From positions 1 to 53,719 of the forward strand of contig CALGLP010000016.1 in NCBI GenBank assembly GCA_937930175.1: a stretch of 53,719 nt of DNA, given 5' to 3'. Source of the stretch: an uncultured bacterium (GTDB lineage Bacteria > Omnitrophota > Gorgyraeia > Zapsychrales > Aceulaceae). Shown here in pieces: positions 1 to 25,997 of the stretch. A program made the position numbers and the translations under genes. A model generated the notes under the pieces. It had not been told where the DNA came from, did no database searches, and saw nothing but the letters and a program-made list of their open reading frames with translations. The first letter of the stretch is position 1, and every line of letters begins with the position of its first letter.

Positions 1-304
1 TCATTGTAGCTAGCGCCGAATTCCGTTCTCATCCAATCGGTGGCCTGCAGGGTCAAGGAGAAGTTTTCCATCTTCTGCACATCCCATGTTGGAACGGCCT
101 GTGTTCCACCGAATAACCACCAGGAGACGAAGGCGCCGTTGGCATCCTTCTCAGCAGCCCAGACGATGTTGTTGACGAAGATCTGGAAGGATGCGGGGGT
201 CAAGTTCATCAGGTCAAAGTTGGCAATGTCTAAGATATCGCCTAAGAGCTCATTGTAGCTAGCGCCGAATTCCGTTCTCATCCAATCGGTGGCCTGCAGG
301 GTCA
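1..304. repeat. Exact 55-nt direct repeat (1-55 = 250-304) inside the giant ORF, offset 249 nt (83 codons)
   Basis: tcattgtagctagcgccgaattccgttctcatccaatcggtggcctgcagggtca occurs at both places. The copies diverge at the 56th base (a vs g). Both copies encode LTLQATDWMRTEFGASYNE in frame. Confidence 0.95.
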
Positions 305-3300
305 GAAGAAATTTATTTCTGTCAAAGGAATGTCCTTCAGGATTGACCACTCCGTAGAGAATAGTGAGTTCCGGATCTCCATGGCTAAGCCCAGATACTG
401 GACGCGGCTGAGGATGCAAGTTTGTGTTAAAGATCGCGTTAAAGGTCAAGCGAAAAGCTTCATTGGTCGTCATCTCTTCAAGAATCCAGGCCACATTAGA
501 CGTCCCAATAATAAAGACAGGGAGATCAAATCTTCCAACCGCTGGGTTGATAATCGCATAAAGAACGGCGAGCTGTGCAGGTGTTGGCGCAAGCGGATTG
601 AAGTTATTAAAAGTACCTTTTCCGTTATAATTGTAAATAAAATCATTACGAAATTCCGAATTGTTATAAAGGGCCTGCAAAAGATCGTCGATGACTTCAA
701 GCTTTGAATCAAGCTCTCCGAGAGAATTAAACTGGCGAAGGCTTTCCTGGAGGGTCAGATTCATAATGTCAATGGCTTGAGGTGGCGCCCTTGATAAAGC
801 ATCAGCAAAAACCAAATACCCATTCTGCGCTGCAATCCTGATCAAATATTTCTGAACCGCTGGATATGTAAAGGCTTCTTCAAGCTTTTCAATATTCATA
901 GCGAGAATCTCCTCGCTCTGACGAGCGATCGCAACCAAGACCGCATCCGCCTTCGAGGACTGGCTTACGGGTTTGCCGTTTGCTGATTGGCCAAATGGAT
1001 TGGCATTTGTTGCCTGGCTAAACATATCGCCATTATTGGGCTGGCTAACACCCGACAAGCTATTAGTTGGTGCGCTTTTATAAGAAGGGGTGGCTTGGTT
1101 TTCAGGAACATAAGCTAGATCACCATACACACCCGCCCAAGAACTCATAGGAGAAAACTGATTGCCGTCAACGAAATGACCCTTCATATTCGGGCTTTCA
1201 ACTTGCACAGCTTGCATCACCATCGTGCTCTGCGAGGAATATGATTGGCTGGCCGGCTTATTGTGCTTCTTGCCGCTTGAAAGATTAATCGCTATGCCAC
1301 CTTGCACCGATGTTATTTTCTCGCCAAAGAAATAGCTGTTCACAAAGCTAACACTCACTTCACTAATAACACCTTTACGCGGCGCATAATATGCCTTGCC
1401 TGAATACCCTGGCGCGTTACCCTCTGCCCAAACCCCTTGGAAGGCAACGCCCGTGCCATTTTTCTGATTATAAATATTCGCGCCAGCGGTAACACTCGTT
1501 GTCTTCTGGTTATCAGCGGTTCTTTGTCCGCCTGTCACGTAGCTGCCATTGGCGTTAACAACATACCCGGCAACAGGAAACTGTCCAGAAAGACGCCACA
1601 TTTCTAGCGGATCAAAGTTCTCGCTTGACACTCCAGACAATAGATAAAACTGATCATTTTTATTATAGCCTGTATAAGAAACGCTGATGTTGGCTATAGG
1701 ATTGGCTTTAAATTGTGTTTGGTAAGAGGCTGAAAAATACGTGTCGTCAAAACTTTTAGCAACACTAAGCTTGCCATTGCCAAAACCAAGATAAGGACCT
1801 GCAATGCTGAGGCTTGCCTGATCATTAGAATAAGAGTTGGTCTTAAATGTCGTATTTGCGCTAAGGGATACCGTGTGGCCAAGCATATCTCCAGAGAGAT
1901 TAAAGTTATCAGAAACATAATCCTTTGTCTGACGATAATAATTATAAACCTGAGAAGATGGGTTTGTCTGGTAATTAATTGTGTTATTAAGTCTTAGCTT
2001 CGGTGCAGCTTTCCAATAATTTGAACTTCTGAGAATAAGCGGTACGTTCTTTAAAGATGCCTCGGCGACATCATTGCGCGGCATGTTAACAGCAACTGAA
2101 GATTTCACCTTTGGCTGCGAAACCACCACGACATTAATCTGCCCTTGCTGGTGAACAACATCCTTGCCTTCAATATCTTTTGTTTTAATAAGGTCATACT
2201 GCATGCTAACTGGGGATTTCTTGATCCAGCCTAATTTAGAAACAGTCTCCATCGGATTAAAACTAAGAGTATATTGCGGTGGCATATTGCGTCCATCAAT
2301 GGTGCGCACATCAACGCCATAAGGCGTGTTAAGATTGTATCCCCAAGAGGTTTGAACAAAAGAGCTTTCTTCCTGGCCCCCGGCGTTGGTGCCCTTAATA
2401 TTCTGGAAAGTACCAAAATGTTCAACTCTAAAATTATACCAAGACATCCAGGCACGATAACAAGCTGACTGCGTATTGTAGCTACCAAAGATCTTTGAGT
2501 TGTATTGGGTAAGGTTTCCTGAAAGCCCAACGCTTGGGGCATTCTTCTTTCCGTTGTAGGTCAGGCTTCCAAAAGTATTGGTGCTTCCCAACAAGCTCGT
2601 ATTGCTATTTAATGCGACTGACAAAGGACCATGACGATATTGGAACCGCACATCAAATGTAGGATTGAAACTTGTCTTAGTAGGTTGCCCAGGCAAGCTA
2701 ACCGAACGATAAAGCCCATTAACACCGATCGTTAAATTCCATTGATCTGATACTTTTTGCGATAATGCCGGAAGGCCTAATTGCGTTCGCGTATAGCGCG
2801 TGACGTCGCGATAAACATCTGAGGTATCTGTATAAGCTCTCTGTGGCGCCACATACGTTTTTTGAGCGCCCGATGATGGCACTGGTGATGGTTGCTGCGG
2901 AACAGACTTGGCATAATCAACGGGCTGCTGAATCGCCTTGGTGACTGGCTCTTCTGCTGGAAGCTTGCTCTGGCTCTGGGGAGTAACAGCGACTTGGCCC
3001 TGATTTTGTGTCTGCGGCTGGGCAGGAGTTTTCTGGGTCTGGGCTTGGCTCTGAGCTTGATCTTGCTTAACAGTATCGTCAGCACCATCCTTTATTTTAT
3101 CTTGATGCACCGACTGCTGCTCTTGATATTGATTATAATTAGCATCAACCAAACGGCTATAAGCATAATAATTAAATCTTGTTTCGTTTACGATTTTGGC
3201 AATGTTATCCTTGATGTCCTGGATAGCGTTATACTCTCTATTGATCCCTAGCTGCTCTTCCATCGTAGGAGAATTCTGCGCCCTATCCTTAAGCTCTTTT

Positions 3301-6300
3301 TCTCGTCTTTTCATGTCCGAAACCAAAGCCTCGGCCATACCCTTGATCTTTTCATTCTCGGCCCTCTGAATAATATGATCTTCGTAAACGTCCTTCAAGG
3401 CCTCGTTGAATGTCTCAATCGTATCAATATATGCAGGCCTTACGGACATCAAGCCAAAGGACGGCTGGCCAAAAAGCATGAAGAGCGACAAAAGAACTGG
3501 AAGGATCGTTCGTCGAGTTATTCTTGGAACAAAATCTTCAGCACAGAAGAAAACGCTAGCAACTTTAATATTTTCTTTCGAATATAAATAAACACCTAAA
3601 CTGATCAGAGCCGCGCTAAGCATAAGCCCGGCAAAAGAAACATAACCAAGGATCAAAGCCGCATTCAGTAAAAGTAAAAATGTTGCAACTAAAGCTATTT
3701 TCTTAACAATCTTGATGAGGCTTGAAGAAATCGCGGAAGAAGCGGCCGGTGTCCTGATCTCCCAGACCAGATTTACCCTGGATTTGTTTACAGAGGAAAT
3801 CTGGACTCGGGCTACGCCCTCGCCACGGAAGAAATCTAGGGCTGCTGTCGAGGATACTTCTTGCCTGCCACGGTAGGAAGGTCTCAACAGCAGCCTATTA
3901 CCAAAAACTAAAGCCGGTGCCCATTCTTTCCAGCCACGGTTAGAAGAGGGCACCAGCATAGAAATCAAAGAAGCCGGTGTCGCACTTACCCAGCCACGGA
4001 CATAAGCGGACACCGGCGCAAAAAGCAAAGATGGGGCTGCTGCGAAAATGTTTCTGCCCCAGCCACGGACAGCAGAAAGTAGCAGCAGCCCATTGTTAAA
4101 TAAGAAAACCGGTTTCGAATTCTTCCCGCCACGGTCAGAAGTGAATACCGGCTTGTTGAACACCATATTTATGATCTTCGAAATGTTTGATGCGCTCACG
4201 ACCTGCGCAAACCAATCACGATATAAAGCAATGATGCCGCCGAGTACGACGGCTACACCCAAAGCTATCTTCATCTCTGGGCTCATGGCAACACCCAAAA
4301 GCATCATCGGCGCAAAAGAAGGCAAAATCGTCAATCGATTATCTACAGGCAAGACAGGTATCTGCGAAGAAGCTTTTTTCTGCTCGATCGGAGAATCCGA
4401 TTGCTTCTGAGATCTACGGGTAATCGTTGGGTTTCCTTCCTCATCCCACTCAACAACATCACCATGATAAAGAACTTCAGGATCTTCGTTTTGAGCCTGA
4501 GACTTGCAATCCTCGCCTTCCACCATTCTGTCCATAAAATCACCGTAGCGGGTGAACAGTTTTATCGCTAACGGCACGCCATAGGTATCGATCAATCGCC
4601 CAAGATGCTTAAGCACAGAAAAATAAGCTATAACCGCGACCGTAAAGGCGATCACGGCTCCGCCGGCATAAGAGGCAACATCACCCAAGCTAGGCGTAAG
4701 GGTATTGGCAAAATCACCGCGGCTATGACTTACTCCTGTCCCAGACATAAACTGGAACAGGTAAGGCAGGATCTCGGTTCTGGTGGTAACCGCCACATAC
4801 GTAAAGACAACAATGGTCCCGATATTCTTGAGCGTGTGACGCACAGGAACGAAACCATAGGTCATTCGTTGATAAATATCATAGCCGTACAAAAATACGA
4901 AGGACTTTTGGGGGATATCCAAGAAGAGATTATACCCATAATTGCGCATAAAAGTGCCTGGCGCATACTCAGAAAAGATATACGGCGCAACAGCCAAGAG
5001 TGTCCAGTAAAGCAAGCCAAAAGGCAGACGCAAGCCAATACTGGTAATGGCAATGATCCAGAAAACTACATGCTTAAAGAAATGAAGCCAAGGATGATCA
5101 ATGCCAGGAACTTCTCCCCATCCAAAATGAAGGAAGTTGTCAATAAAAAACGCCGCGGTCAAGGCTACCGCAAGATTAAATAAACTTTCTTTCCAGGTAC
5201 TACGATCGGCCTGCGGATCGACCAGAAGAATTCGTGCTGTTGTAGTCTTGATTCGTGTCCACGCTTTTTGCTGAAGGTCTTTTAACGATGATGAAGAACG
5301 ATTTTGGAAGATTTTAACAGGATTTTGAGACAGACCGCGGGAATTGAACAATGTGAAGAGAATTTGAGCTATGACAAAGGTCGGAAGAAGTCTTCCGAGC
5401 GGACTCATCTCTTTATTGCTTGGTATGACCCCAGTCTTAAATGTCTTTGTATTGCTTATTAGAGCTCTGGATCTATCGCTAATCTTCTGGTATTGACGCT
5501 GTAGGCCTTCTAAGGCTCGTCTGGCATACTCTTGCGCAGCTTTGAGAACAGAAGCAGCCCTTTGGCCTTCCTCATTAAAGGACACACCTTGGGCACCACT
5601 GGAAACGCCATTTTCTGCCATCAAAGACGAACTATTTTCTGTGATCACAGAGCTATTTCTAGCCTCCCTTACTATAGAAGGCGAACGAGCGCGGCCTGCA
5701 AACACCGCAGACACGTTCGATCTTGTTCCTAGATAAGCTGGAACCAATGCCCATTGACCTTCAGCGGCATAGGCCTCACCTACCAAGAACCTAGAAATGG
5801 CTGCAAACACATTCGTCATTGTTGCAGTTAACATTTCCTGTAACGACAATTCCTTTGAAAGAACATTTAAGCCTGTTTCTCTCTTAACGAGAGCAGCTAG
5901 GGCTCGGCTGGAGGTGATCATTTGGGCGCGCACCTCTCGCACCGTCAAGTCGCCAAATTTTCTAATGAGCAACTTAAAGTTTCTTACAACTTTTGCTTCT
6001 TTTACAACATCTGTGCGTCTCGAAGCAACGTTTCGCACAAATTCCGTGACTATTTTTGTTCCGCGCTTAATATTTATCACTGTCTGAGCCAATGCGGAAT
6101 TGGCCGACAGCCCAAAAATACCTCCGCCGTTACCGGTTCCACTAGAAAAATAGGGTCCGTCCTTCTTATCAACCTGGGCATGAGCTACCTTATATGCTCC
6201 AGGCACAGAAATTGTTTTATAGTTGACAATATTGGCATGAGCTTGGTTCACATAGGCAATAACTGTATGCGGATTCTCATTTTTAGGTGTTGTTTTCTGC

Positions 6301-21300: not shown

Positions 21301-24300
21301 AACGTGTCCGTGGACATCCATATTCTTTCTAAGAAACCGTTTCCGCTTCCTTTTAATACAGGCAAGGATAAAAGTCCCAAATTATTCACAAAAGCAAAAT
21401 TGGCGGGAATGCGATCCTTCACAAAGGCCTTCACCTGATAACCCCAGCTGCCATCTTTCAGGGCATAGGCGCTAAATCCAGTATCATCCGCACTGACAGT
21501 TTTTCTAAGACCGAGAACTCCTTTTTCTTTTCTGCCAAAGGACGCCTCGACATTGATCGTCCCTTGTTTCTTTCTAAGATTTTCGCTTAAGAACGAAAAT
21601 TCCGGCCGTCCCTCCACGCCTTCCATGATGCCATTGCCAAACTCATCCTGCACAGCTCTAGTATCTTCAAAATTTCCACCCTTATTGCTGTCATATGATT
21701 TCTGCAAACCCTGGAAATAGACTTCTCTATCGCCAAATTTCCCTTTATACACAAGGGTTTGCTTTTTGCCCGCCTGGCTAATTTCAACTTTATCAAGTGC
21801 AATCCTGTATAAAGATAATTTGATAGACCCATTATCAACAACAACCTGACCTTTTCTGTTGATATAGGCACCTTTCTTTTTTAAAGCCTCTTGTCCTTCT
21901 GAAGTGTTTTTATCTTTAGCCAAGACTTCAAGATCTGTACTCGCATAATAGGAGCTTCCGTAACCTAACTCACTAAAATAATCTTTTGAAAGAAAAATGG
22001 CCGGCAAGAGAACAGCGTTTTTAACGATTCCCGCTGCCAAGCCATCAATACGTGTTCCTACGGTTCCCTGGCGCTTGTCTTGGTTTTCAGTCTTGATGAT
22101 AACGCTGTCCCAAGGCGTATGAACCGCAAACATAATCCTCTGGTCGCCTACTAAAGGCCTCTCAATACTACGATAACCTAAGCCCATCAAGCTTAGGTCG
22201 TCATCCCCCTTGAGATACTCCGCAGAAGATAAGATATTTTCTGTAATCCCTCTTTTGAGCTTTAAGATCTCAAACTTCGCAAAATTCGACTCATAGGTAT
22301 TAGACTGGGCCATCGTAGAGTTGAACTCTTTACGCAACTCGGTTTCTGACTTTGGCGCGATCGATTCAGCATTTTTTCTCTTTGTTTCTTTCCATTGACT
22401 GTCATACTGCAAAACAAAATCGGTTGTAAATCCGTGCAGGGTTCCGTACTGATCAATAATGTTGTTAACATTTTGCATACCCTCGGCATAATAATTTCTT
22501 TTTCCCTGCCTATAACGAGCACCTTGTTCTTCGGGGGTGGCGCCTGTAATGTCTCCGTAGCCGCCGAGATTAATATAATCTGCATAAAAAGTGTTCAGGC
22601 GATTAGCTGTTTCGTTCGCGGCAACAGATAAAAATTCTGAGAACCAACCTCTTTCTTTCTTAAAAATAGCGCTCGTTGATGTTTCAGATTCTTTCTCAAA
22701 TGAAAAAGACGCGAGGATTCTTGGCATTTTCTTTATTTCAGAATTCGAGTCCTGATCAGGATTAGAAACGATTGAAGGAGTGTTGCCAGGAATAACCGGA
22801 TCTAAATCTACGGCTTCACGTGAAGTCTTTAAAACAACTACTGACTGCCCTGCAACATCTTGTGCTTTTTCTTTCCTAAATTGATCTGCAGCCTCTTGTT
22901 CTTTTTCTTTCCTAAGTTGTCGCAGGTTAATCGAATCCACCACTGCCGCTGAAAGGCCATCTACAACAGCGCTCACAAGCATCGCCTTGGCATAAAAATC
23001 TCGTGCTCGTGCTAAATCAAGATTGCCATCTTTCTTAAACTTCTTTTCTTCGTACTTATCAATTTTGTAGCCGATCCATGTTTTTAACGCGCCTCGGCCA
23101 ATGGTGCCTGCCAGCTTTGCCCAAGGATTTTTAAATTTAATCGCGTCGCCATTCTCATCTTGAGGCGTCCACACATCATAGGCATCTGTGTTCGTATATC
23201 CTACGCTCTGACCTTTAGTCTCAAGCCCTTTAATTTTTGTCAAATCTTTTGCCCTGGAAAAACCCTCGTGATATTTTACATGCTCATGAACAGTCGAGCC
23301 TGTAGGGTTCTCTGTGTTTATACCCTCTACTGAAAATACAGAAAATGTGCCATCCTTAACATTATCGTATTCAGCATAACCTCTTGCTGTTAAATCTCTT
23401 TCGAGACGCTTTAATTGCCTTTTATCATATCGATAGGCTTTTCTCCAGCTAATCGACTCTCCCTTACCTGTGTCTGTCCACTCTGCTTCTACAAGGTCTC
23501 CGTTCTCGTCTTTAACATAATTTCCTTTGTCGTCCTTTAAATATTTAAAATCTTCTTTTTTAGTTTCCTCTTTAAATGATTTATAACTAACTTTTAACCA
23601 TTGGTTGTCTTTGGCTTCTTTCGCTTTTTTATAGTCTTCTTTCCATTCAGGATTGTACCATCTGCCATTTTTATAAGCTTTGACAGTTTTTTCCTTCATT
23701 TCATCATCGCCTTCGCCATACTTAAATCGATTCTTGGTAATGCGTCTGCCTTTTGCGTCATACAATCTTGCGCGATCAGGAGAAAGCAGATCTTCCCAAA
23801 CGACCTGAGCTACAAGATTTCCTGTTTCAATTACAGTTTGGACAAATAAACTATTTGTATCGAGACCGTTCTTCTTGGCAATCTTTTCCGCAATCATGCC
23901 CAAGCCTGTGCCCACGACCTGAACTCTTGCCTGTCGCCACGAAGCCAGAAGAACTTCAACAAACTTCTCATCTAAAGAAAAAGTAACAACAGGTTTCCCC
24001 TGCTCTTTGACAACCTCACCATTCTCTGTCTTTAATTTGTCCTTTAATCCAAAACCAATATCGAGCTCTGCACCCTCTAGCCAATCGCCAAAGGTGGTTG
24101 ACGCATGAGAACCTTTAAAAGCAACATTAATCCCTTTTCCAGCAAGGCGAAGCGCCTCCTCAGCGACACTCGCTGTTGCGATCGTCACAAGGCTTTCAGC
24201 CAACGAAGTCGTCACTGCCGTTACGGCTTCCTTTAAGACTTCACTTTTAATGCCAAGATCCTCAATGGTTCTTGCAACCAAAATATTTACTTTCTGCCTG

Positions 24301-25997
24301 ACATACCCAACCGCAAATCCAACCACAAAATCCTTGCCAATATTTCCAAGGATATTCCCTGTGCTTGGCAACAGCGCCTTAATTTGAGCATCAGTAAAAC
24401 CATAGCTTTTAGCTAGTGCGCCTAGCTCTTTAAAACTCTGAACGCCGTTCAACTCTGCCGTAACTCTTGCTTCTGCGTTTTTTATTGTTTCAGCTGTTGT
24501 CATCCCCGTATCCGTCGTTCCGTATGAGAGATCATTCATCACAGCGTCTGTTTTCGCAAACTCCTTCATGCCTTCTTGAACCTCTGGCTTAAGCTGGTCT
24601 AGCTTTTTTTCATATCCTGATATAGCTACGGTCGCAGCTGTTATAACAGCAACACAGATTTTAGATGTTAATTCCGCATCCCAGCCCCACTCTATCATTC
24701 CGTAACGACCAAAGGAATTTGTTAACTTGCTAATACCTCGAATGAGCAGAGACATCCTTATGGCTCTTAATAAAACATCGCCTTTCTTAATTAAATCCGC
24801 AAATTTAAAAAGTTTTTCTCCAGCTGATCCAACCTTTCCAATGTTCTTAAGAGCGCCCAAATTTGCAAACAACATAATAATCTCTATGGCCTTCATTAAG
24901 AAAAACTTGCCCCATGTTTCTTTTTCACCAGTAAACATTAAATTTTTATACTTTTGATTGTCCCATGACGACCCCCACACAAAGGCCTTCTTTTCATTGG
25001 AAACAATTTCCGCATTGCCTAAATTTTGAGTATTGGGCGCTAGGACATAGCCGGTAAATTCTTTCAAGAAGGCTTCTTTAAAGAAAACCTTTCGCTCGCT
25101 AAGATCATTAAAGGTAATCGTGTCTTTGCCAACTTCAGTAACGAGAACAAAGTGCTCGGGGTTCAAATTGGCAATAAAAGGAGTGTCAATGGTGCCAATA
25201 TCTGTATTAGTGATCTTGGCCGCTTTAAAATCAAGTCCATAGGCAGAGGTTAAAGAGTCCAGGGCATAGAGCGAAGTTTTGAGCTTGGGGTCTCCGGCTC
25301 TAATAACCTTGCCTAAAATATCAACAGCCAGGGTAAGAACCGAAGCCTCTTGAAGCGTGATCTCAATTTTATTCTGAGCCAAAAGATCACGCAGGGCATG
25401 GACGCCGCAATTTAAATGCTGGATGCTTGTTTGCTTAAGCCAGGATTCAAAATTTGTAATATCTTGCTTTGTAAACTTAGCGGTTGTTGTGATCAGAAGA
25501 CCGCGATTATTGGTGGCACCCGAAACGCCTGTGTTGGGTAGTTCGAGCTTAACAAGGGCTTTGTCTTTATCTTGAATCTGGGTTAAAAGATCGCGGATGC
25601 TTTCGGAAATCGTTGCGGCTTCTTTAACCCCAAGATACGCATCGACTTTTCTTTCTCCCCAAAGAACAGCCGGATTGTAATGAAAAGCCCAGCTGATCTG
25701 CTCAGGGGTAAAAACAAGAATAACGATCAAGGCAACAGTGCGGATCCAAGCCTTGAAGCTGCTCTTAAATCCCGTATAATCTACTGCGATCGCTTCCACG
25801 GAAACAGCAGGACTTGCCCCGTTAGAGATGCGAGAAGGCAAACCTTTTTCAGGACTCACGGTCGCCTGGGGCGCCCTATCTCTAATGGGGGAGCCCTTTG
25901 AAGACTTAGAAGAGACAAAAAAAAGACTATAAGAAAATAGTCTTTTTATATATTGTTTTACAGTGGTAAGGATGAGGTTCAAGTCTAGATTTTTCAT
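3..25997 (-). CDS. Giant multi-domain envelope-associated protein, 3'-truncated by the window edge (at least 8,665 codons inside the window)
   Basis: The minus-strand frame whose codons occupy plus positions 3k..3k+2 is stop-free and protein-like wherever I hand-translated it: 3-59 SLTLQATDWMRTEFGASYN; 1320-1379 RKGVISEVSVSFVNSYFFGE; 3930-3959 MLVPSSNRGW; 11100-11201 KQKKQAKTEDEKVKAEESIEKLEKSKKELKTQLK; 25141-25200 IGTIDTPFIANLNPEHFVLV; 25381-25450 ESWLKQTSIQHLNCGVHALRDL. All 16 minus-strand ORFs the track lists within 1-26000 are in a different phase. Any stop in this phase would have produced a listed ORF. The first upstream in-frame stop is TGA at 26127-26129 and the first ATG is at 25995-25997. 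The true start is uncertain because terminator-like hairpins overlap the 5' end. Confidence 0.85.
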   Translation of the reverse strand, partial: MKNLDLNLILTTVKQYIKRLFSYSLFFVSSKSSKGSPIRDRAPQATVSPEKGLPSRISNGASPAVSVEAIAVDYTGFKSSFKAWIRTVALIVILVFTPEQISWAFHYNPAVLWGERKVDAYLGVKEAATISESIRDLLTQIQDKDKALVKLELPNTGVSGATNNRGLLITTTAKFTKQDITNFESWLKQTSIQHLNCGVHALRDLLAQNKIEITLQEASVLTLAVDILGKVIRAGDPKLKTSLYALDSLTSAYGLDFKAAKITNTDIGTIDTPFIANLNPEHFVLVTEVGKDTITFNDLSERKVFFKEAFLKEFTGYVLAPNTQNLGNAEIVSNEKKAFVWGSSWDNQKYKNLMFTGEKETWGKFFLMKAIEIIMLFANLGALKNIGKVGSAGEKLFKFADLIKKGDVLLRAIRMSLLIRGISKLTNSFGRYGMIEWGWDAELTSKICVAVITAATVAISGYEKKLDQLKPEVQEGMKEFAKTDAVMNDLSYGTTDTGMTTAETIKNAEARVTAELNGVQSFKELGALAKSYGFTDAQIKALLPSTGNILGNIGKDFVVGFAVGYVRQKVNILVARTIEDLGIKSEVLKEAVTAVTTSLAESLVTIATASVAEEALRLAGKGINVAFKGSHASTTFGDWLEGAELDIGFGLKDKLKTENGEVVKEQGKPVVTFSLDEKFVEVLLASWRQARVQVVGTGLGMIAEKIAKKNGLDTNSLFVQTVIETGNLVAQVVWEDLLSPDRARLYDAKGRRITKNRFKYGEGDDEMKEKTVKAYKNGRWYNPEWKEDYKKAKEAKDNQWLKVSYKSFKEETKKEDFKYLKDDKGNYVKDENGDLVEAEWTDTGKGESISWRKAYRYDKRQLKRLERDLTARGYAEYDNVKDGTFSVFSVEGINTENPTGSTVHEHVKYHEGFSRAKDLTKIKGLETKGQSVGYTNTDAYDVWTPQDENGDAIKFKNPWAKLAGTIGRGALKTWIGYKIDKYEEKKFKKDGNLDLARARDFYAKAMLVSAVVDGLSAAVVDSINLRQLRKEKEQEAADQFRKEKAQDVAGQSVVVLKTSREAVDLDPVIPGNTPSIVSNPDQDSNSEIKKMPRILASFSFEKESETSTSAIFKKERGWFSEFLSVAANETANRLNTFYADYINLGGYGDITGATPEEQGARYRQGKRNYYAEGMQNVNNIIDQYGTLHGFTTDFVLQYDSQWKETKRKNAESIAPKSETELRKEFNSTMAQSNTYESNFAKFEILKLKRGITENILSSAEYLKGDDDLSLMGLGYRSIERPLVGDQRIMFAVHTPWDSVIIKTENQDKRQGTVGTRIDGLAAGIVKNAVLLPAIFLSKDYFSELGYGSSYYASTDLEVLAKDKNTSEGQEALKKKGAYINRKGQVVVDNGSIKLSLYRIALDKVEISQAGKKQTLVYKGKFGDREVYFQGLQKSYDSNKGGNFEDTRAVQDEFGNGIMEGVEGRPEFSFLSENLRKKQGTINVEASFGRKEKGVLGLRKTVSADDTGFSAYALKDGSWGYQVKAFVKDRIPANFAFVNNLGLLSLPVLKGSGNGFLERIWMSTDTFAFTAKTGFGERKLDVKREERTRRLHGITSPGSVLAAKNLSQDGTGKIIDGPKGEEDPDQDYEYTLAITNPLLVTLETVGKDDAVVVTNRFKTLETNYYDQTEIIPYEKFTIVENPDGTRKLATKIEDKTSAWLFSPNYGTALFTSAEPTPEDVPAIKTSSTAQAPENLGYIVSEKSADPDLSGPVEDVPNIITGYVTSPDQEERMKQEIAKRQDSGDLPKAARVVVSVGEPSAESGVKASPDTIAINLDKPFEAPNRITGMQMTSGSDVALLTGELEFTQGAPSMMDEKGQYSFGNISWEDTFKNVVFDRAALPVFAMGNTDQAFRLYKDVWIGRRDGTVPEGLGFQISDKGLFSGAGSYIADYGKSELKNAFVGSNELVLNVTLDKNKQVVDFSPLTEEQLRQELDRTELIGVNTFYRVDEESSEVSGHFDQALNEMGMPISVVTSIGPDGQVVTDLMDKVLWNVAEVSGNIVGMTGNSTVGRGLVLSPDSKSIIPEIVSSDKTTAGPEEIYDHNSTLTGEEVLWTKESIIKTDDGDKKIGHRFLLAKGDNVFYLKGLVTKDGIMKAQTVDVQSGYRNDKTMWKNVTQAEYMGNGNIKIFKDKDGATVSLPYMRIEREKTIDYIDLYLNNPIVLNHKVNKDGYDLAMQGVMSLGAANALKVQERFALGPLEARTTHKHKNGSEPIGYGARRTLIVYDQAQEDKGEQKKGAFQLPEYDVYFGDGLGWTINEYRDTKNWSDKKTRQVVYQSTNATKNGERVLHYGVQDLSWLAKYAMHQDDSQVIDEASGEYKLGYKVNIKTTIDPETDVVTAEGTVPAIIDLSTEGVLTKHVLAEAQGGVQIAKPVAKGGEQAKILKMKLTGLAYDLVVEINQKDGRARVLVGKDKNDEGAWKYYSSLKELRKELREKQLNLSAAWGQEGALNNGQLNTAQAIENIPDDIVKGTVDASEVVGLDRGSLENPFNVGPDRWIDVDKAIKQFVLRAEDGTFNDEAIASSKQEIISADSKDRKEQAENNKAETKKILAEHPEYAGFLPPDVVAAATKKDPNSYSSYFGDEADAQANADIYKAFVTKAGLLDKADASLEAIKQGRQKASESTSLDVSVSPEGILQKVEVLPQGNALGELSVFYDELVKAKNFLINLDVNSPTFSQEADKVSDFMDLVMPEDDGQGNVVKKGEKGFESGVGLLLAERGVQTSIAVTDANGDTTYLPKLFMEGEAKNAPILAFGEATALIKAYDEGLNFENFMATSSVIDVKKEDVKRAIGGGGEAVGIQFPASLSSYVDPSTLKKVEGWYGGIVPDLMGYVVKEKNNADARDAMLETRGVVTGEKQRLNMNDKTWLTQAVMAPFILIDWTHRGIYRGLSLSDQWQGKGYGQKIESKYGWMVDAVNKSYFGVVDGRTNDISSFLSVKDSIANLDYKWQKRNAKITIATQAVTGTALIVGSVVLGGAPIWMGMISGAGMSAYSEFFGDKELAPLAASQYGLQNNFYWKKELSSTTKFLVSASSVVQSAGVGGAVGAVTGVVGQKIFSPLFKGFGSGIWNRFGDVTKQFVPSLSGLSQGTLNTIGVAGVSLSAGGLTSLGTLVYNGGNIIFGSNDRTLDQGVFENGLGVALILPTLYAASSSPKLMQNVYGFATKTWGNAAIVATGTATALAGSTYGAYRNFNNATDDKGNVDESKYNISFLGSAWRSIAYQPGRIILGIGNNLGISNAPSAAQLDALSVYENNRFNSRAGQMGVLGVTLAFSRSFAKEYLSVATFATQINGVLNMKETLRSFLAFGKDAFNGESPNSGNKEPLTVTLASLAGSLWGASAGFKGIGKGIAKKATSIQQGANLSKGAGFKQSAKEMLAGLRQFEKRTPGFKATKAQVDAYKRLIRIERTGQFFGQAGKMFTATPGIMYANTGLAVMMPIMGGQAISFDTIGDSLRSVSNQMSNIAASSFAMSAIFKVTGGLATKTGARYGMIGGGTALVGGGAMAIWGKGKWKEAGKSIASIGGTVLLATAVMRLGNVGGTKFGKTAPFKRPGQGFLRSKIGAGLTLSAAGVGMIWAGHELKEYNQSLACNIETLGQASITREIFGNVLENAGLIVAGAGLGFLSRGLGEIGKTKIGRIQTNQIDALKWGKPAGKGILIGSGAGMVVGGWAVNRYGEGYWKTVGTAMMWTGGALAAAGILGAVKLGKGFEATKIGKGLQATAEGAGKFGQWGVKQGFNLVRFTGKTAIGATNAASTGAVVYGTKRLAVDWALESIGTAIDPFEKDPITGKVITGADGKGILKAMPEYGEWSKNDLFGSNKKDRQKAALYILGAGLTVNSLVKLGRVTSKSFAGEEMSVGVKQGAKQGWQKLLDPIKRTYTNGKLSGQRFARDGRNWAVYVGAGTAAGGLVVNHYGEGGWKKVGTAMMWAGGALATIGLLSNVKTAKLGKGFEASRFGKGLQATAQGLEKGLSLAKYEKAIGQVAGVGKATLRFAYNEMGWQTARTLFGVIAPLKVGLEAFSWAANKSLVNDHNSGLENFIWGQTLAAFYNPGVLAKYENDVQGLHLISDFKNAKGLFNTVAAGAQLFKIGYLSSLFGEKEVELNEIDPKTGKNKKIAVSNVTTLGIRRSLFGDLDAKNKGMFASDTALGRLGRVLVGNIWDDNGKRTGSIARGALNLITPFGHQARTWEQFDKTTLVFSAVLVGLQPMATEMLGNIKLGNVGKGYRAFGKGMEATYGGEAILGFKKGADAEVKGFLGWSKKGITGFAQTSIEGSLEEVGEQFAGIASGPILALAEPILKVFGASDLGAQQIRAQLDEIWQEVAIPNGSAARNKAENLWSVLGRNATIRFFSSAGMANLSQQQKDDVKAKLENRTMHEIRNDKEAWNLLAVLAENGVSVNIENSLGKVTTLDMNEGAKDYFTVRANVADMNNQLQNVDESERNKTIVNIVSAAQVAGDALVSEAAMVFANENLARDELVSHNDFSATGNVLEKLAVGSGVATVTPGQFVSMANTVTQNMNHEDFSTKRQGANKIWSALNQTVEIANIEHVNQLLSPEEIKRANYLLNMGLPQLERDKEALASLGRILAGNTKVTIKNWEGQTQTFELSGEKGWSDFFDEQVAMAKILNEMETRGLDRTGRLNYLAGVLQNKDTPENVEDKNQKKAAQKLVAREVTAEQAAQVFAGRKQLFLAYNPEDNSKTDLVVHDAATINATPSVYHPMQIQAEHIAQQKMAGNSVFASQVKQEAKNLKPWSPTEETWSKGSVRAQQDLEEATINFWDAYARHKYTGEDTYQAESYQYSKLQERIQRFQSAEEQRTTAIGRQGDISTWQRIGFAINWTTLGHLDSVIKKVSRGRFNAGKAGKLRTFLLDSEKSGGIRTNIDFKMKQNEKKLEEAKKQKKQAKTEDEKVKAEESIEKLEKSKKELKTQLKQVKTKYRGMFKRLSSMGLRDLASKKQRELLSDFAGARRTDALTYINDLEKDPAQIEKIANSNAYSSMGTTLDERKANVKADIEKTRQQLFKTQEYDAHGVMNALLISYEVEENNKTITRYRSIVDVGEVSEQGDVDDVIDEWTIYGSLYNDVRNAETPAQNFGTRRVYDIFHNTRLTKQGKIVKNTNLFYNVRHERAHSRVVQLSEAGELETDPLTKDIVAALEIISGKKLKDMDLSLKEEDYNEIITQIVSAQESAAYFDAHPEQKMEIDSPVYSQFTQILSKVGMPVTGDIHKQIAAMTPYQITLACYQNVMGKYNLKIDEQVKEKILKDKSYMPSYAELTKGQEATREKIQEILKNGQTAAQEAFIANPRLQDEELRFIAVEEVMKLAKQAGLDMAEFNILHRETSFSSNYNTRQINYRDEEAGRVLHKGDHLVWSIAATYKGETVQQSDNLAVVSDQGSLSIKKIDYDIAKEDDFIKSLDGLSKSQQRKHLAIYRGYQQIQDFVNGANTDRDFFETYSFLDKKTQEAMKKNLAGKNYGYWNKVHEFFAGEENQVSSLEIGHYTDGGSLKQNKIRTGDDVIIDLALSAGDLGLRKRFEIKVNQDTYGKTEATKKSFDQDIKDSLKKKDYKRALMVADDKDRKGIRDDQRSRAREDILTQKYNDELKAGQHAEALETAKQIQKENKNFDLKAAQQRILRVKKAELLKQKDFNGAIAVVRDLKKSMGEEYDEYEDLSQIFFVQYGYQTNAQDVKPQEFAAQLAAKHGYDEQAILTSIYTQNAKVMRDRSNLKAAHAFEEKLASLSGHQHDSSVSKANDLAHKAQKQISHGQYDSAIQSLNKAKQIYEKAGVDFDLEEEIANVYFAKARAAGQANKTVAAQAKEKAYKLLGLTDAQWTQYSDSLKKAEEEFSKGNVLKGMEQSQKAQEVVNDVIAKQRYQRSVATLNKNYSSNAKDLKANIKLVKNALNLLNGTVSSKQKNAIAKQLNRVQELGKAGRNSKAQAQLDDVKKTLNKTADLFASGASSVLKTKPAIVAAPGVSSVLKTTKAPWTSTLKTGPKTSFLGSLLPASLIPASLAVVFGFAQKTQAQSSEISLLDIKLPTPREISVSENQASFANTSNTYFMAGDTTLSAPDTINMEKIKMPKSDTTRKSYPKKINLKLKEQLRKGIYKFNLPTLPGNQNQLLATARYKASTFKAPKAPKTPKAPALKSPSPGSSIFSSAMEENDLVTIIKTLEAQGDTRKPYIYHGGKYYRVDGISPIVSVLLSDEEAAAEVKTGVIFAQGDTPSPVDQEVPFMNGYALETIMYFIPSQVAPAAVAVAKTSKPVSAPTVVKPNKVGSSTLISSQKVDNQELIEYYYANKNTPSALPLKDVLSVLSFSIVYVPADEAPGMEASLKGMGVNVYYFGDKLPNVDTTVSNVLIVKNKEEAVASNPDLRAVFIEKNAEFVDVRWTPLELVVVNTPKGQQDGIVPAEGAQTQTQDIQFKDADMPKPVEFMPSDVTDIPSFAPMAPVVPPVFVPATPTLMFTPLLGKAKTNIKYEYKPGDGGPSVVYVALAENTSHTATSKQSSGQSDNTKVMYPLGLPSPGAQLPLPSEGQGQKTTPKNENPHTVIAYVNQAHANIVNYKTISVPGAYKVAHAQVDKKDGPYFSSGTGNGGGIFGLSANSALAQTVINIKRGTKIVTEFVRNVASRRTDVVKEAKVVRNFKLLIRKFGDLTVREVRAQMITSSRALAALVKRETGLNVLSKELSLQEMLTATMTNVFAAISRFLVGEAYAAEGQWALVPAYLGTRSNVSAVFAGRARSPSIVREARNSSVITENSSSLMAENGVSSGAQGVSFNEEGQRAASVLKAAQEYARRALEGLQRQYQKISDRSRALISNTKTFKTGVIPSNKEMSPLGRLLPTFVIAQILFTLFNSRGLSQNPVKIFQNRSSSSLKDLQQKAWTRIKTTTARILLVDPQADRSTWKESLFNLAVALTAAFFIDNFLHFGWGEVPGIDHPWLHFFKHVVFWIIAITSIGLRLPFGLLYWTLLAVAPYIFSEYAPGTFMRNYGYNLFLDIPQKSFVFLYGYDIYQRMTYGFVPVRHTLKNIGTIVVFTYVAVTTRTEILPYLFQFMSGTGVSHSRGDFANTLTPSLGDVASYAGGAVIAFTVAVIAYFSVLKHLGRLIDTYGVPLAIKLFTRYGDFMDRMVEGEDCKSQAQNEDPEVLYHGDVVEWDEEGNPTITRRSQKQSDSPIEQKKASSQIPVLPVDNRLTILPSFAPMMLLGVAMSPEMKIALGVAVVLGGIIALYRDWFAQVVSASNISKIINMVFNKPVFTSDRGGKNSKPVFLFNNGLLLLSAVRGWGRNIFAAAPSLLFAPVSAYVRGWVSATPASLISMLVPSSNRGWKEWAPALVFGNRLLLRPSYRGRQEVSSTAALDFFRGEGVARVQISSVNKSRVNLVWEIRTPAASSAISSSLIKIVKKIALVATFLLLLNAALILGYVSFAGLMLSAALISLGVYLYSKENIKVASVFFCAEDFVPRITRRTILPVLLSLFMLFGQPSFGLMSVRPAYIDTIETFNEALKDVYEDHIIQRAENEKIKGMAEALVSDMKRREKELKDRAQNSPTMEEQLGINREYNAIQDIKDNIAKIVNETRFNYYAYSRLVDANYNQYQEQQSVHQDKIKDGADDTVKQDQAQSQAQTQKTPAQPQTQNQGQVAVTPQSQSKLPAEEPVTKAIQQPVDYAKSVPQQPSPVPSSGAQKTYVAPQRAYTDTSDVYRDVTRYTRTQLGLPALSQKVSDQWNLTIGVNGLYRSVSLPGQPTKTSFNPTFDVRFQYRHGPLSVALNSNTSLLGSTNTFGSLTYNGKKNAPSVGLSGNLTQYNSKIFGSYNTQSACYRAWMSWYNFRVEHFGTFQNIKGTNAGGQEESSFVQTSWGYNLNTPYGVDVRTIDGRNMPPQYTLSFNPMETVSKLGWIKKSPVSMQYDLIKTKDIEGKDVVHQQGQINVVVVSQPKVKSSVAVNMPRNDVAEASLKNVPLILRSSNYWKAAPKLRLNNTINYQTNPSSQVYNYYRQTKDYVSDNFNLSGDMLGHTVSLSANTTFKTNSYSNDQASLSIAGPYLGFGNGKLSVAKSFDDTYFSASYQTQFKANPIANISVSYTGYNKNDQFYLLSGVSSENFDPLEMWRLSGQFPVAGYVVNANGSYVTGGQRTADNQKTTSVTAGANIYNQKNGTGVAFQGVWAEGNAPGYSGKAYYAPRKGVISEVSVSFVNSYFFGEKITSVQGGIAINLSSGKKHNKPASQSYSSQSTMVMQAVQVESPNMKGHFVDGNQFSPMSSWAGVYGDLAYVPENQATPSYKSAPTNSLSGVSQPNNGDMFSQATNANPFGQSANGKPVSQSSKADAVLVAIARQSEEILAMNIEKLEEAFTYPAVQKYLIRIAAQNGYLVFADALSRAPPQAIDIMNLTLQESLRQFNSLGELDSKLEVIDDLLQALYNNSEFRNDFIYNYNGKGTFNNFNPLAPTPAQLAVLYAIINPAVGRFDLPVFIIGTSNVAWILEEMTTNEAFRLTFNAIFNTNLHPQPRPVSGLSHGDPELTILYGVVNPEGHSFDRNKFLLTLQATDWMRTEFGASYNELLGDILDIANFDLMNLTPASFQIFVNNIVWAAEKDANGAFVSWWLFGGTQAVPTWDVQKMENFSLTLQATDWMRTEFGASYN
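3800..4150 (-). repeat. Six in-frame degenerate 45-69-nt repeats centred on GCCACGG (minus strand CGT GGC = Arg-Gly), most flanked by inverted arms that can form hairpins
   Basis: CCACGG starts at 3823, 3868, 3934, 3994, 4063 and 4129. Spacings are 45, 66, 60, 69 and 66 nt, all multiples of 3. Encoded motifs are RGE, RGR, RGW, RGW, RGW, RGG. Arm examples: 4034-4043 gggctgctgc pairs with 4082-4091 gcagcagccc, with an inner stem 4051-4057 tttctgc / 4072-4078 gcagaaa; 3973-3981 gccggtgtc pairs with 4009-4017 gacaccggc. Confidence 0.8.
13998..14915 (-). repeat. Internal ~200-nt duplication (about 13998-14200 vs 14724-14915, offset 717-726 nt, in frame) within the Gly/Ala-rich hydrophobic part of the giant ORF
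   Basis: agctgtggcttgcaaacc occurs at 13998 and 14724, and caaagccccaccag(c/t)ccacatcatagc at 14091 and 14808. The encoded paralogous peptides are GEG(Y/G)WK(T/K)VGTAMMW(T/A)GGALA...KLGKGFEA(T/S)..GKGLQATA. Confidence 0.75.
25090..25450 (-). other. Papain-like / C39-like cysteine peptidase signature near the N-terminus of the giant ORF
   Basis: KQTSIQHLNCGVHALRDLL (Cys codon at 25407-25409) is followed about 85 residues later by NPEHFVLVTEVGKDTITFND (His codon at 25152-25154). This matches the Q..CG..A / H(F/Y)VV...I.D(P) pattern of peptidase family C39. It follows a hydrophobic segment, AWIRTVALIVILVFT. Confidence 0.5.
25917..25947 (-). terminator. Intrinsic-terminator-like hairpin (A-run, 10-bp stem, T-run; usable on both strands, with the stronger T-run on the minus strand)
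   Basis: 25921-25930 aaaagactat pairs with 25937-25946 atagtctttt, with loop aagaaa. On the minus strand the stem is followed by a T run. It lies inside the ORF if the ATG at 25997 is the start. Confidence 0.5.

Follow-up and report, generated by a model that had tools for sequence, protein, structure and literature searches.

The left half of the window (the whole 53,719-nucleotide stretch of DNA analysed here) very probably carries a single real giant gene of the Omnitrophota, truncated at its 3' end, which belongs to a published class found downstream of Tad/Flp clusters and whose product would be part of an envelope apparatus. The giant gene is genuine, though it is not a new kind of thing: what the original prediction overlooked is that gene and neighbourhood together fall into a described class, that of the Omnitrophota giant genes placed behind a Tad/T2SS-like cluster.

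The minus-strand frame running from position 26126 to position 3 holds 8,708 codons with zero stops; nothing else in the window's left half is open. Counted from its first ATG, at 25997, it comprises 8,665 codons (at least 25,995 nt; giant coding sequence at 3-25997, minus strand, with the 3' end past the contig end), and the claim that this phase is open from that ATG to position 3 was thus correct. In the standard list of open reading frames for positions 1-25990 the longest entry is 197 aa (14263-14856, plus strand); the giant frame is missing from it because reading frames that run off an end go unlisted, and lists of this type conceal precisely this class of genes. With the ORF's own base composition the probability of a stop is 0.0615 per codon, and that of 8,708 codons without a stop is ~1e-240. 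The coding signal is uniform along the frame: in blocks of 1,000 codons, GC1 is 0.49-0.55 and exceeds GC2 in all blocks but one, and the purine share at codon position 1 is 0.60-0.71. These codon-position values are similar to those of the adjacent Tad genes, and the other two frames carry stops at 4-11% of codons. The open frame and the codon statistics together confirm that the giant coding sequence is real, single and 3'-truncated. Stop-codon reassignment was weighed and discarded: the 14 neighbouring genes use TAA or TAG as their stops, recoding is therefore unnecessary, and the giant frame is free of TGA as well. The suggestion that the product is among the largest bacterial proteins has to be given up, as Omnitrophota proteins of 39,678, 85,804 and 147,155 aa have already been published (PMC10066038; 10.1101/2023.11.21.568195; 10.64898/2026.06.07.730766).

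The window corresponds to positions 1-53719 of ENA ERZ724082 NODE_453 (54,039 bp). The same locus is found in NCBI GCA_036722365.1 (100% identical over 20.9 kb, with an ORF of 7,961 aa that is still open where the contig ends) and in ERZ724084, from a different sample (99.96% identical, open for 5,809 aa, again to the contig end); the DNA identity between assemblies covers the first ~9.1 kb of the giant gene, which is the flank limit. The concern that the stretch might be chimeric or mis-assembled is largely answered by these three assemblies, one of them from another sample, each of which keeps the ORF open to its contig end. Positions 1-55 of the window are an exact copy of positions 250-304, and the giant gene is truncated because the contig ended on this repeated 55-mer; a scan with the terminal 55-mer for sequence extending the gene, in JGI metagenome contigs and GTDB genomes, gave no match. 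The last visible stretch of the gene (3-314, minus strand), which ends on the 55-mer, contains the first 1.25 units of a ~83-aa tandem repeat (..LTLQATDWMR..NNIVWAA..WW.F..), and one relative has at least 10 units of it. The full protein is probably well above 10,000 aa.

The public gene call begins at GTG 26120, within a conserved promoter-like site, while homologue alignments support ATG 25997 as the likely start. The site in question is a sigma-70-like promoter (TTGACA-16-TATATT with an extended -10 TG; 26111-26138, minus strand), both hexamers of which are invariant in four species. It is followed by a leader box, AAAGCCACGG (26087-26096, minus strand), invariant in 10 species, and by a GC-rich leader hairpin and a UUUUU run (26010-26049, minus strand) located 12 nt upstream of the ATG. 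The hairpin has a z of -3.5 and one compensatory pair, and together with the U-run it looks like an intrinsic terminator; the leader box is able to pair with the 5' arm of the hairpin. The conserved leader of the giant gene is terminator/antiterminator-like. An Rfam search of the leader returned nothing at gathering or permissive thresholds. The conserved promoter and leader offer a concrete handle on the regulation of so costly a gene.

The protein begins with an 83-aa basic tail (12 K+R, 5 D+E) and a transmembrane (TM) anchor at aa 84-105 (25683-25748, minus strand) that is kept in all relatives, followed by a C39 cysteine peptidase domain at aa ~123-338 (24984-25631, minus strand). The PF03412 match scores 34.8 bits (cutoff 22; E 1.7e-8), and Pfam, a PDB profile and AF2/Foldseek agree on an anchor and a C39-like peptidase at the start, as had been proposed. 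An AF2 model of the N-terminal 1,100 aa is confident for the C39 core alone (pLDDT 70-86). With this core, Foldseek retrieved 6mpz, 3b79, 5xe9, 3zua and PCAT1 at target TM-scores of 0.62-0.72 (0.70 for 6mpz); PCAT1 and HlyB are among the matched proteins. Long alignments to whole PCAT chains involve low-confidence helices and were left uninterpreted. The candidate catalytic residues, identified by alignment, are Cys197 (25407-25409), His282 (25152-25154) and Asp298 (25104-25106), all on the minus strand and all invariant in 29 sequences. His282 and Asp298 match the '..HFV..' and '..D..' positions of 6mpz and PCAT1 in a significant alignment, and Cys197, within an N-C-G motif, pairs with the 'CG' of 6mpz in a sub-alignment that is non-significant; we take the aligned Cys, His and Asp positions to be the catalytic residues of the solved C39 enzymes.

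The C39 domain of ABC transporters is cytoplasmic. In the giant protein, the basic N-terminal tail suggests an N-in orientation, and the C39 domain would then lie outside the cytoplasm. The fold is that of the C39 domains of PCAT1, LahT and ComA and of the C39-like domain of HlyB, and the His/Asp pair aligned to the solved chains and the N-C-G Cys are invariant, but here the domain follows a TM helix instead of standing at the extreme N-terminus, no ABC domain is fused to it anywhere in the visible 8,665 aa, and a chain of more than 8 kaa is attached to it. It also differs in that no double-glycine substrate was found, leader-like motifs of this type being absent from the giant protein and from the real neighbouring genes (all ORFs searched). 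This is thus a C39 domain in a new context, and not a PCAT.

PF03412 is present in each of the five N-terminal homologues, three of which have names and are entered as 'C39 domain-containing protein, partial' or 'hypothetical protein' of Candidatus Omnitrophota/Omnitrophica. A GTDB scan with a single protein (the N-terminal 1,100 aa) gave no close relative; an alignment-based GTDB scan using C39 motif patterns gave 51 related loci, by title ~29 from Omnitrophota/Omnitrophica, ~21 from TPA bins labelled 'uncultured Planctomycetales' and one unassigned. In 47 of the 51, the ORF that starts with C39 continues past the end of the retrieved DNA, and 26 of these 47 have more than 3,400 aa without a stop when the flank limit is reached. 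Homologues of tadB and tadC (45-89% identity) lie immediately upstream in every locus with enough upstream DNA, and the order tadB, tadC, p1042, p599 is kept in related loci; a TM + C39 start module directly after tadB/tadC is near-universal in the 51 species. The closest relatives of TadB, TadC, the C39 module and the C-terminal third all come from one MAG, 'Candidatus Omnitrophota bacterium SO_2016_LW1_10', and similarity of this kind points to an Omnitrophota host for the giant gene.

The likeness to the described Omnitrophota giants comprises host, an ORF whose length of at least 25,995 nt passes the >20 kb single-ORF criterion of Seymour, an N-terminal C39 domain beside an anchor, numerous TM helices (as judged by hydropathy), few recognisable domains, poor conservation and a secretion/pilus cluster, of more than 10 genes in our case, directly upstream. 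The published neighbourhood of the class comprises gspD/E/F-like genes, rcpC, a Rotamase_2 PPIase and small genes with class-III signals (10.1101/2023.11.21.568195; 10.64898/2026.06.07.730766), and the Rotamase_2 PPIase, RcpC, secretin, T2SSE ATPase, two T2SSF proteins and ~10 pilins of the window correspond to it. Downstream of class giants, PilZ, solute-binding, transporter or glycosyl hydrolase genes have been reported (10.1101/2023.11.21.568195; PMC10066038; 10.64898/2026.06.07.730766). A divergent SecA_DEAD domain is found in most full-length Omnitrophota giants and is not universal (10.1101/2023.11.21.568195; PMC10066038; 10.64898/2026.06.07.730766); the visible 8,665 aa have no Pfam match to it at E <=0.1, and it could lie within the missing part of the protein. 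Being incomplete, the gene at its present 8,665 aa falls under both catalogue thresholds, of at least 10,000 aa (10.64898/2026.06.07.730766) and of more than 30,000 aa (10.1101/2023.11.21.568195).

Within the class, the nearest subgroup is the architecture cluster 'PF03412 (Peptidase C39) only', with 24 proteins (Nielsen and Lui, 10.64898/2026.06.07.730766). The visible part contains none of the 'Archaeovorin' domains (glycosyltransferase, methyltransferase, glycosyl hydrolase, NUDIX, HEAT, TPR) and none of the 'Dockerin-type' domains (dockerin, TSP3 repeats); lacking SecA_DEAD, glycosyltransferase, HEAT, dockerin and TSP3, it is therefore assigned to neither of these two types. A further known giant is that of Velamenicoccus archaeovorus LiM, which in the account of Kizina et al. 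2022 given in PMC10066038 has 39,678 aa and 42 predicted TM helices. That organism expresses its Tad complex, and peptides of its giant ORF are up 3-fold in attached cells (PMC10066038). Membrane threading and an Omnitrophota genome that encodes a Tad complex are common to both cases, a likeness drawn from description and not from sequence, and V. archaeovorus is absent from the 51 loci found by C39 motif patterns. As far as the account in PMC10066038 goes, the V. archaeovorus giant is proposed to act on the target-cell surface and has many enzyme domains, whereas ours has none so far.

Between the C39 domain and the C-terminal third, the protein is a succession of blocks with little resemblance to anything known. 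The segment at aa ~350-1640 (21078-24950, minus strand), made up of hydrophobic helices, a charged stretch rich in K/E/W/Y and otherwise mixed sequence, is kept in the closest relatives only (the match reaches aa 1642 in L007 and aa 1390 in L009, contig ends setting the limit in each). Further along, a Gly/Ala-rich hydrophobic region spans aa ~2990-4300 (13098-17030, minus strand), with a GA content of 22-35% and about a dozen weak TM-like segments. This region (aa ~3000-4300) had been predicted to consist of Gly/Ala-rich hydrophobic repeats; the region itself is there, but the repeat array is not, since a single ~80-aa duplication was found within it (aa 3698-3778 vs aa 3937-4012; 14664-14906 and 13962-14189, respectively, minus strand). 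In a self-BLAST of overlapping 150-aa chunks, this duplication and the terminal unit were the only internal repeats of the protein. A charged region, K/E-rich in parts and without a recognisable domain, follows at aa ~4400-6000 (7998-12800, minus strand), the part for which helical, coiled-coil and TPR-like sequence had been proposed, and then, already within the C-terminal third, a multi-pass hydrophobic block at aa ~6930-7520 (3438-5210, minus strand), with 8-10 TM candidates by hydropathy. For the whole protein, hydropathy alone gives 12 TM-like segments at a Kyte-Doolittle score of >=1.6 and 34 at >=1.3. Several features that had been read by eye are present in the translation, among them the charged KKLEEAKK... 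stretch at 11.1-11.25 kb, the KAPKAPKTPKAP linker and the multi-pass TM block; for TPR, which had been proposed as well, there is no Pfam match in the giant protein. Searches of the whole protein, against Pfam and, with phmmer, against NCBIfam, PHROGs and PDB sequences, returned only C39 and weak C39/ABC-transporter echoes, and we agree that, besides C39, almost none of it matches a known family. No homologue of aa 6651-7750 was found in a word-indexed search.

The C-terminal third (aa 6309-8553; 339-7073, minus strand) is collinear, in four blocks of 31-35% identity, with the fragment P0013, which is L060 from the closest sister-species MAG; most of the multi-pass block (aa 6913-7451) finds no alignment in it. 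Within this third, a beta-leaning, S/N/G/T/Y-rich block occupies aa 7730-8245 (1263-2810, minus strand). It is kept in the sister species, has an OMP-like composition and shows the highest beta-to-alpha amphipathicity ratio in the protein; of the predicted beta-barrel-like block, the beta lean is thus borne out by composition and amphipathicity, and the barrel is putative. An AF2 model of it from the single sequence, with no alignment, has a pLDDT of 28.8, and its profile gave no meaningful match and no barrel in the PDB. Beyond it lies a domain with a '..RAPP..' motif (aa ~8340-8561; 315-980, minus strand), parts of which are common to P0012, P0013, P0015 and P0018. A word-indexed search with aa 7701-8665 found no homologue; an exhaustive HMMER search with aa 7530-8665 found 7 relatives. 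Among P0012-P0018 only P0013 can be placed taxonomically, because it matches L060 of an Omnitrophota MAG. These fragments carry further domains: Peptidase_M23 in P0012, in which ~1,280 aa, Tyr/Asp-rich to the eye, come after the repeat array; PG_binding_1, Peptidase_S8 and TPR in P0018, in which a similar-looking beta block comes after the TPR repeats; and, upstream of the shared region, an ART-PolyVal ADP-ribosyltransferase in P0013. Local HMM comparison of our beta block with those of P0012, P0015 and P0018 gave E >=0.05, and an RHS match on the ~83-aa repeat unit was non-significant. Identity to MAG SO_2016_LW1_10 falls from 89% for TadB and 83% for TadC to 65% for the C39 module and ~35% for aa 7730-8553; the 8.3-kaa body of the giant protein is, at the level of its sequence, almost non-repetitive, with a divergence far faster than that of the start module or of the pilus genes.

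The visible 8,665 aa gave no match to an adhesion, CAZyme or cell-wall hydrolase domain, so our proposal for the function is based on neighbourhood, relatives and literature. We suggest that the N-terminal anchor and the later TM segments would insert the protein into the inner membrane, with large loops facing the periplasm or the cell surface, and that the C39 domain would act as a membrane-proximal processing protease, with the giant chain or partner proteins as its substrate. Combined with the Tad-like pilus and the secretin, the giant protein would form a cell-envelope apparatus that attaches to host or prey cells and acts on their wall, a role already put forward for Velamenicoccus archaeovorus and for further Omnitrophota. 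The C-terminal module (beta-rich block, 'RAPP' domain and ~83-aa array) is partly shared by fragments with M23, S8 and peptidoglycan-binding domains, and from P0012 (M23) and P0018 (PG_binding_1 and S8) we infer a possible link to the envelope or cell wall. Giant genes take up a sizeable share of small Omnitrophota genomes, and these bacteria are thought to be predatory or episymbiotic; the present locus adds detail to the question of their function without reopening it.

Other readings of the same locus must be weighed against this one. The product could be a polyprotein, that is, one chain cut by its own C39 domain into many envelope proteins of ordinary size; West-Roberts et al. have raised the same possibility (10.1101/2023.11.21.568195), and we regard it as unlikely, though deserving of some credence. 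The three residues (Cys, His, Asp) that align with solved C39 peptidases are invariant in 29 sequences, which would fit such a chain, as would the mosaic, non-repetitive body with its linker-like P-rich, Q-rich and S-rich segments between blocks; against it, the double-glycine leader-like motif occurs 0 times in 8,665 aa, where ~1 is expected by chance. To our knowledge, C39 enzymes strip N-terminal leaders off small peptides and do not cut polyproteins. An arrangement similar to that of inverse autotransporters, in which the N-terminus sits in the inner membrane and aa 7730-8245 form an outer-membrane beta-barrel that exports the tandem array and the rest, seems improbable to us. The amphipathicity and OMP-like composition of the block, its retention in the sister species and the repeat array that comes next would all suit it, and some outer-membrane secretion porins have TPR repeats before the barrel, an order that the similar-looking block of P0018 recalls. 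The low pLDDT and the absence of a PDB barrel in the profile search speak against it, however, as does the failure to demonstrate homology between our beta block and those of P0012, P0015 and P0018, and according to Nielsen and Lui the Omnitrophota giants yield no credible beta-barrel calls (10.64898/2026.06.07.730766). Going further along this line, one polypeptide might span the whole Gram-negative envelope, anchored in the inner membrane by the N-terminal TM + C39 module and the later TM blocks, with aa 7730-8245 as a barrel that would export the ~83-aa units and further unseen modules to the surface, and with synthesis gated by an undescribed terminator/antiterminator leader containing AAAGCCACGG; this extended scheme we think improbable as well.

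We are similarly sceptical of a polymorphic toxin or polyvalent effector, a carrier that would deliver variable enzymatic modules into or onto target cells. The ART-PolyVal domain of the sister-species fragment, M23 and S8 in other fragments, the long Tyr/Asp-rich stretch after the P0012 array, the lack of an alignment between sister species for aa 6913-7451 and the fast divergence would be expected of such a carrier; but toxin, immunity, RHS and PAAR domains are all missing from the visible part (the RHS match on the repeat being non-significant), and the many TM segments favour a resident membrane protein. Because type I secretion ABC transporters typically carry C39 or C39-like domains (PCAT1 and HlyB were matched), one may also think of a classical giant of another kind, such as an RTX/Bap-type repeat adhesin with type I export or an NRPS/PKS megasynthase. 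This reading can hardly be entertained: ABC transporter, RTX, Ig-like, cadherin, condensation, adenylation and ketosynthase domains are all missing, the sequence is essentially non-repetitive, the C39 domain sits on the giant itself and the neighbours are Tad-like and not type I; for the visible 8,665 aa it is refuted. Just as little credence can be given to an artefact, be it non-coding or pseudogenised DNA, mis-assembly or genes fused by sequencing errors. The contig does end in a repeat and the assemblies are all short-read, yet chance absence of stops (~1e-240) and the uniform coding signal contradict it, as do the three assemblies open to their contig ends, the homologues in 51 species, which have start module and synteny in common with it, and the conservation of the C-terminal third as protein in the sister species.

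The cluster upstream of the giant gene, all of it on the minus strand, contains a Tad/Flp type IVc set consisting of CpaF/TadA ATPase, TadB, TadC, RcpA secretin, RcpC, TadZ/CpaE and Flp pilins. Nearest to the giant gene are the two T2SSF-family platform genes, tadC (27009-27893) and tadB (27897-28757), followed by a region (28777-37893) encoding proteins of 1,042 and 599 aa, neither with a Pfam match, and some ten pilin paralogues of the Flp type, whose motif is ..K-[GA]-Q-S-x-x-E-Y; the N-terminus of the 599-aa protein is itself similar to Flp-type pilins. Beyond these lie a fusion of ParA-like and T2SSE parts (CpaE-CpaF-like; 40932-43100), a secretin with a C-terminal TonB_C domain (43136-44794), RcpC/CpaB (44799-45656), the Rotamase_2 PPIase (45667-46629) and a protein of 298 aa whose N-terminus is pilin-like (46738-47634). 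No prepilin peptidase (TadV/CpaA, A24) was matched in 20 neighbouring ORFs, several small ORFs being outside the scan, and its gene may be elsewhere in the genome. The C39 domain was rejected as a stand-in, since the pilin leaders have K-[GA] before Q-S-x-x-E-Y and are not of the GG type. RcpC/CpaB, secretin, CpaE/TadZ, CpaF/TadA, TadB, TadC and pilins with G/A-xxxxEY are shared with the Tad systems of Aggregatibacter, Caulobacter and Bdellovibrio. Unlike in classical Tad loci, CpaE and CpaF are fused here, the secretin carries TonB_C, the pilin paralogues number ~10 and no prepilin peptidase is seen in the window; and the giant gene, which is not a feature of classical Tad loci, here always comes after tadC.

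In its left half, the window has a single long open frame in a six-frame scan that keeps edge-truncated frames: 8,708 minus-strand codons running from 26126 to 3 without a single stop. Its first ATG is at 25997, leaving 8,665 codons, and the stop-free frame between 25997 and 3 claimed in the original prediction is thus borne out. The frame is missing from the ordinary ORF list, in which the longest entry between 1 and 25990 has 197 aa, because that list omits ORFs that run off an end. The stop probability per codon, taken from the ORF's own base composition, is 0.0615; the chance of a stop-free frame of 8,708 codons is therefore ~1e-240. Per 1,000-codon block, GC1 is 0.49-0.55 and the purine fraction at codon position 1 is 0.60-0.71, GC1 exceeds GC2 in all blocks except one, and these codon-position values are similar to those of the neighbouring genes; the remaining two frames across the ORF have 4-11% stops per codon. 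The giant coding sequence is real. The public gene call starts it at a GTG at 26120 (8,706 aa), a position inside a conserved promoter-like site, while alignments of homologues support ATG 25997 as the true start.

Recoding is not involved. Of 14 neighbouring genes examined (27009-53032), seven end in TAA and seven in TAG, and none in TGA. TGA is likewise missing from all 8,708 codons of the giant frame, so it is avoided as a stop without having acquired an amino-acid meaning.

The window corresponds to positions 1-53719 of NODE_453 in ENA assembly ERZ724082, and its left edge is the contig end. The same locus is 100% identical over 20.9 kb in GCA_036722365.1 (NCBI), where the ORF is open for 7,961 aa to the contig end, and 99.96% identical in ERZ724084, from a different sample, where it is open for 5,809 aa to the contig end; within the giant gene, these DNA identities cover only the first ~9.1 kb, which is the flank limit. 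Of eight differences between the window and ERZ724084, one is in the giant gene (K82Q). The other seven fall within 95 nt (35238-35332) inside a Flp-type pilin paralogue (35194-35577), and there are tandemly duplicated pilin genes as well (35741-37714, 76-89% identical), pointing to microdiversity among the pilins, gene conversion or a locally ambiguous assembly.

The sole significant Pfam match of the giant protein is Peptidase_C39 at aa 238-323 (34.8 bits; cutoff 22), and NCBIfam, PHROGs and PDB sequence searches returned nothing further. Searching with the N-terminal 1,100 aa gave five relatives, all with PF03412; the three that are named are all Candidatus Omnitrophota/Omnitrophica. An alignment-driven scan of GTDB species representatives then yielded 51 related loci, ~29 of them titled Omnitrophota/Omnitrophica, ~21 being TPA bins titled "uncultured Planctomycetales" and one unassigned. 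Common to all 51 is a start module consisting of a TM helix and the C39 domain (aa ~77-350); longer matches occur in the closest loci only, to aa 1642 (L007) and aa 1390 (L009), where those contigs end. In 47 of the loci the ORF that begins with this module runs past the retrieved DNA, and in 26 of these no stop appears for over 3,400 aa, the 10-kb flank limit.

C197, H282 and D298 do not vary across an alignment of 29 sequences, and the profile of this alignment matches the solved C39 peptidases LahT150 (6mpz) and PCAT1. H282 and D298 align significantly to the "..HFV.." and "..D.." of both enzymes, while C197 aligns to the "CG" of 6mpz in a non-significant sub-alignment only; we take the aligned positions to be the catalytic residues of the two enzymes. 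An AF2 model from a six-sequence alignment is confident for aa ~123-338 only (pLDDT 70-86), and Foldseek with this model finds C39 and C39-like domains at target TM-scores of 0.62-0.72. Together, the invariant Cys/His/Asp, the profile match and the structural comparison indicate a genuine C39 peptidase, probably an active one. The domain does not belong to an ABC transporter.

The minus strand carries every long ORF of the window. Those upstream of the giant gene encode, in order towards it, a Rotamase_2 PPIase, RcpC/CpaB, a secretin with a C-terminal TonB_C domain (43136-44794), a single 722-aa protein fusing ParA-like and T2SSE domains (CpaE-CpaF-like; 40932-43100), a DUF192 protein, two proteins of 1,042 and 599 aa with no Pfam match and, last, TadB and TadC (T2SSF); there are also ~10 small proteins with Flp-type prepilin motifs such as KKGQSTLEY. 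Together they make up a Tad/type IVc pilus cluster. To our knowledge, both a TonB_C domain on a Tad secretin and a fusion of a TadZ/CpaE-like ParA with a CpaF-like T2SSE are unlike classical Tad loci. Homologues of tadB and tadC lie directly upstream of the giant ORF's start module in every related locus with enough upstream DNA.

This cluster agrees with the surroundings described for Omnitrophota giant genes, where a secretion system of over 10 genes includes gspD/E/F-like genes, rcpC, a Rotamase_2 PPIase and small genes with class III signals (10.1101/2023.11.21.568195). Nielsen and Lui confirm the giant-gene flanks and report an architecture cluster of 24 proteins with PF03412 only (10.64898/2026.06.07.730766). 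The gene thus belongs to a known kind and is a well-documented example of its class, of moderate interest; new are some comparative detail and a candidate regulatory leader. The mosaic described in the original prediction is largely right, while its ranking of the product among the largest bacterial proteins, its repeats and its beta-barrel are not supported. The only internal repeats are one ~80-aa duplication and the terminal unit, and the body is otherwise essentially non-repetitive.

Hydropathy gives 12 strong TM-like segments, or up to 34 with weaker ones. The body also has a Gly/Ala-rich region (aa ~3000-4300) and a dense hydrophobic block (aa ~6930-7520). Nowhere else in the protein is the beta-to-alpha amphipathic moment ratio as high as in the stretch described as beta-barrel-like (aa 7730-8245), where S, N, G, T and Y are abundant; single-sequence AF2 reached a pLDDT of 28.8 here, and searching PDB with a two-sequence profile gave no relative.

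Word-indexed searches with aa 6651-7750 and aa 7701-8665 gave no relatives; an exhaustive HMMER search with aa 7530-8665 gave seven. One of these, P0013 (2,713 aa), aligns to aa 6309-6913, 7451-7629 and 7730-8553 at 31-35% identity, leaving aa 6913-7451 unaligned. L060, a contig of Omnitrophota MAG SO_2016_LW1_10 that was found with an alignment containing P0013, appears to encode it. This genome also has the closest N-terminal match (65% over aa 1-345, 83% for TadC, 89% for TadB), and the orthologous body has therefore diverged much faster than the start module and its Tad neighbours.

A second fragment, P0012 (7,087 aa), has at least 10 tandem units of ~83 aa (aa 4971-5810) with the motif FELTLQAxDWLRNN...NNIVWAA...WWMF, for which there is no Pfam family; the unit also occurs in fragment P0014 (aa 1-300) and at window positions 3-314. 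The units of P0012 are 44-52% identical to aa 8562-8665 of the giant protein, so the break in the contig falls at the opening units of an array of this type. Its final 55 nt (1-55) are an exact copy of 250-304, and at the protein level aa 8563-8582 and 8646-8665 are 95% identical. The name NODE_453 is SPAdes-style, and 55 is the usual largest k of that assembler; we infer that the break is an unresolved repeat node. Both P0012 and P0014 continue past the array for thousands of residues, with more than 1,200 aa that likewise lack a Pfam match; the real giant protein is thus probably well above 10,000 aa. Fragments with parts of the C-terminal module carry Peptidase_M23 (P0012), PG_binding_1, TPR and Peptidase_S8 (P0018) and ART-PolyVal (P0013); this links the module to cell-wall-active or effector-like cargo, although the visible 8,665 aa contain no such domain.

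The giant protein probably resides in the envelope, with TM1 and the later TM segments as its anchors and with large exposed loops, a topology taken from hydropathy only. C39 would be a membrane-proximal protease that processes either the giant chain or partner proteins, and the protein would work with the Tad-like pilus/secretin machine in attaching to and attacking the surfaces of hosts or prey. Such a role with the Tad complex has already been proposed for V. archaeovorus, in which the complex is expressed and giant-ORF peptides are up 3-fold in attached cells (PMC10066038). Against this mechanism, the visible 8,665 aa contain no adhesin, hydrolase or SecA_DEAD domain, and a motif search found no GG-type substrate motif.

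The 220 nt 5' of ATG 25997 are 69-78% identical in three related species. The promoter and leader (26010-26138, minus strand) comprise the hexamers TTGACA and TG-n-TATATT (26138-26111), invariant across the related species compared, a conserved AAAGCCACGG box (26087-26096) and a 13-15 bp GC hairpin followed by UUUUU and the ATG (26010-26049; z -3.5, one compensatory pair). Omitting the 3' arm of the hairpin lets the box pair with its 5' arm in three of the species (z -3.0 to -3.7); the two structures exclude each other, in the manner of a terminator/antiterminator switch. With a covariance model, the element is located immediately upstream of the giant ORF in three further species and, with weak hits, in another three; leader positions in related loci are 9754-9880 (L007), 2409-2535 (L008), 1553-1683 (L010) and 9737-9850 (L030), and further 9812-9919 (L009) and 9834-9954 (L011). 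The AAAGCCACGG box is invariant in 10 of 10 species. Exact copies in the 51 loci number 22 on the coding strand and one on the other; 19 of the 22, in 12 loci, precede the TM/C39 anchor by 110-640 nt, and with one mismatch allowed the density upstream is ~14 times that elsewhere on the coding strand. The box is thus both strand-specific and position-specific across related loci. No Rfam family matches the leader, which we regard as a candidate attenuator.

An intergenic element of ~300 nt, including a GGCUUCGC...GCGAAGCC hairpin, occurs twice in blocks 86-94% identical, once between tadC and the promoter of the giant gene (26677-26982) and once between the DUF192 gene and a 558-aa ORF (39982-40202). 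This ORF (38072-39748), preceded by the second copy, has the pilin genes on one side and the ATPase gene on the other, is without a Pfam match and may be an insertion into the Tad cluster. Finally, a minus-strand tRNA gene at 53620-53693 (Rfam RF00005, 64 bits) is flanked by a partly repeated 52-nt segment (53310-53361 and 53583-53634, 71% identical).
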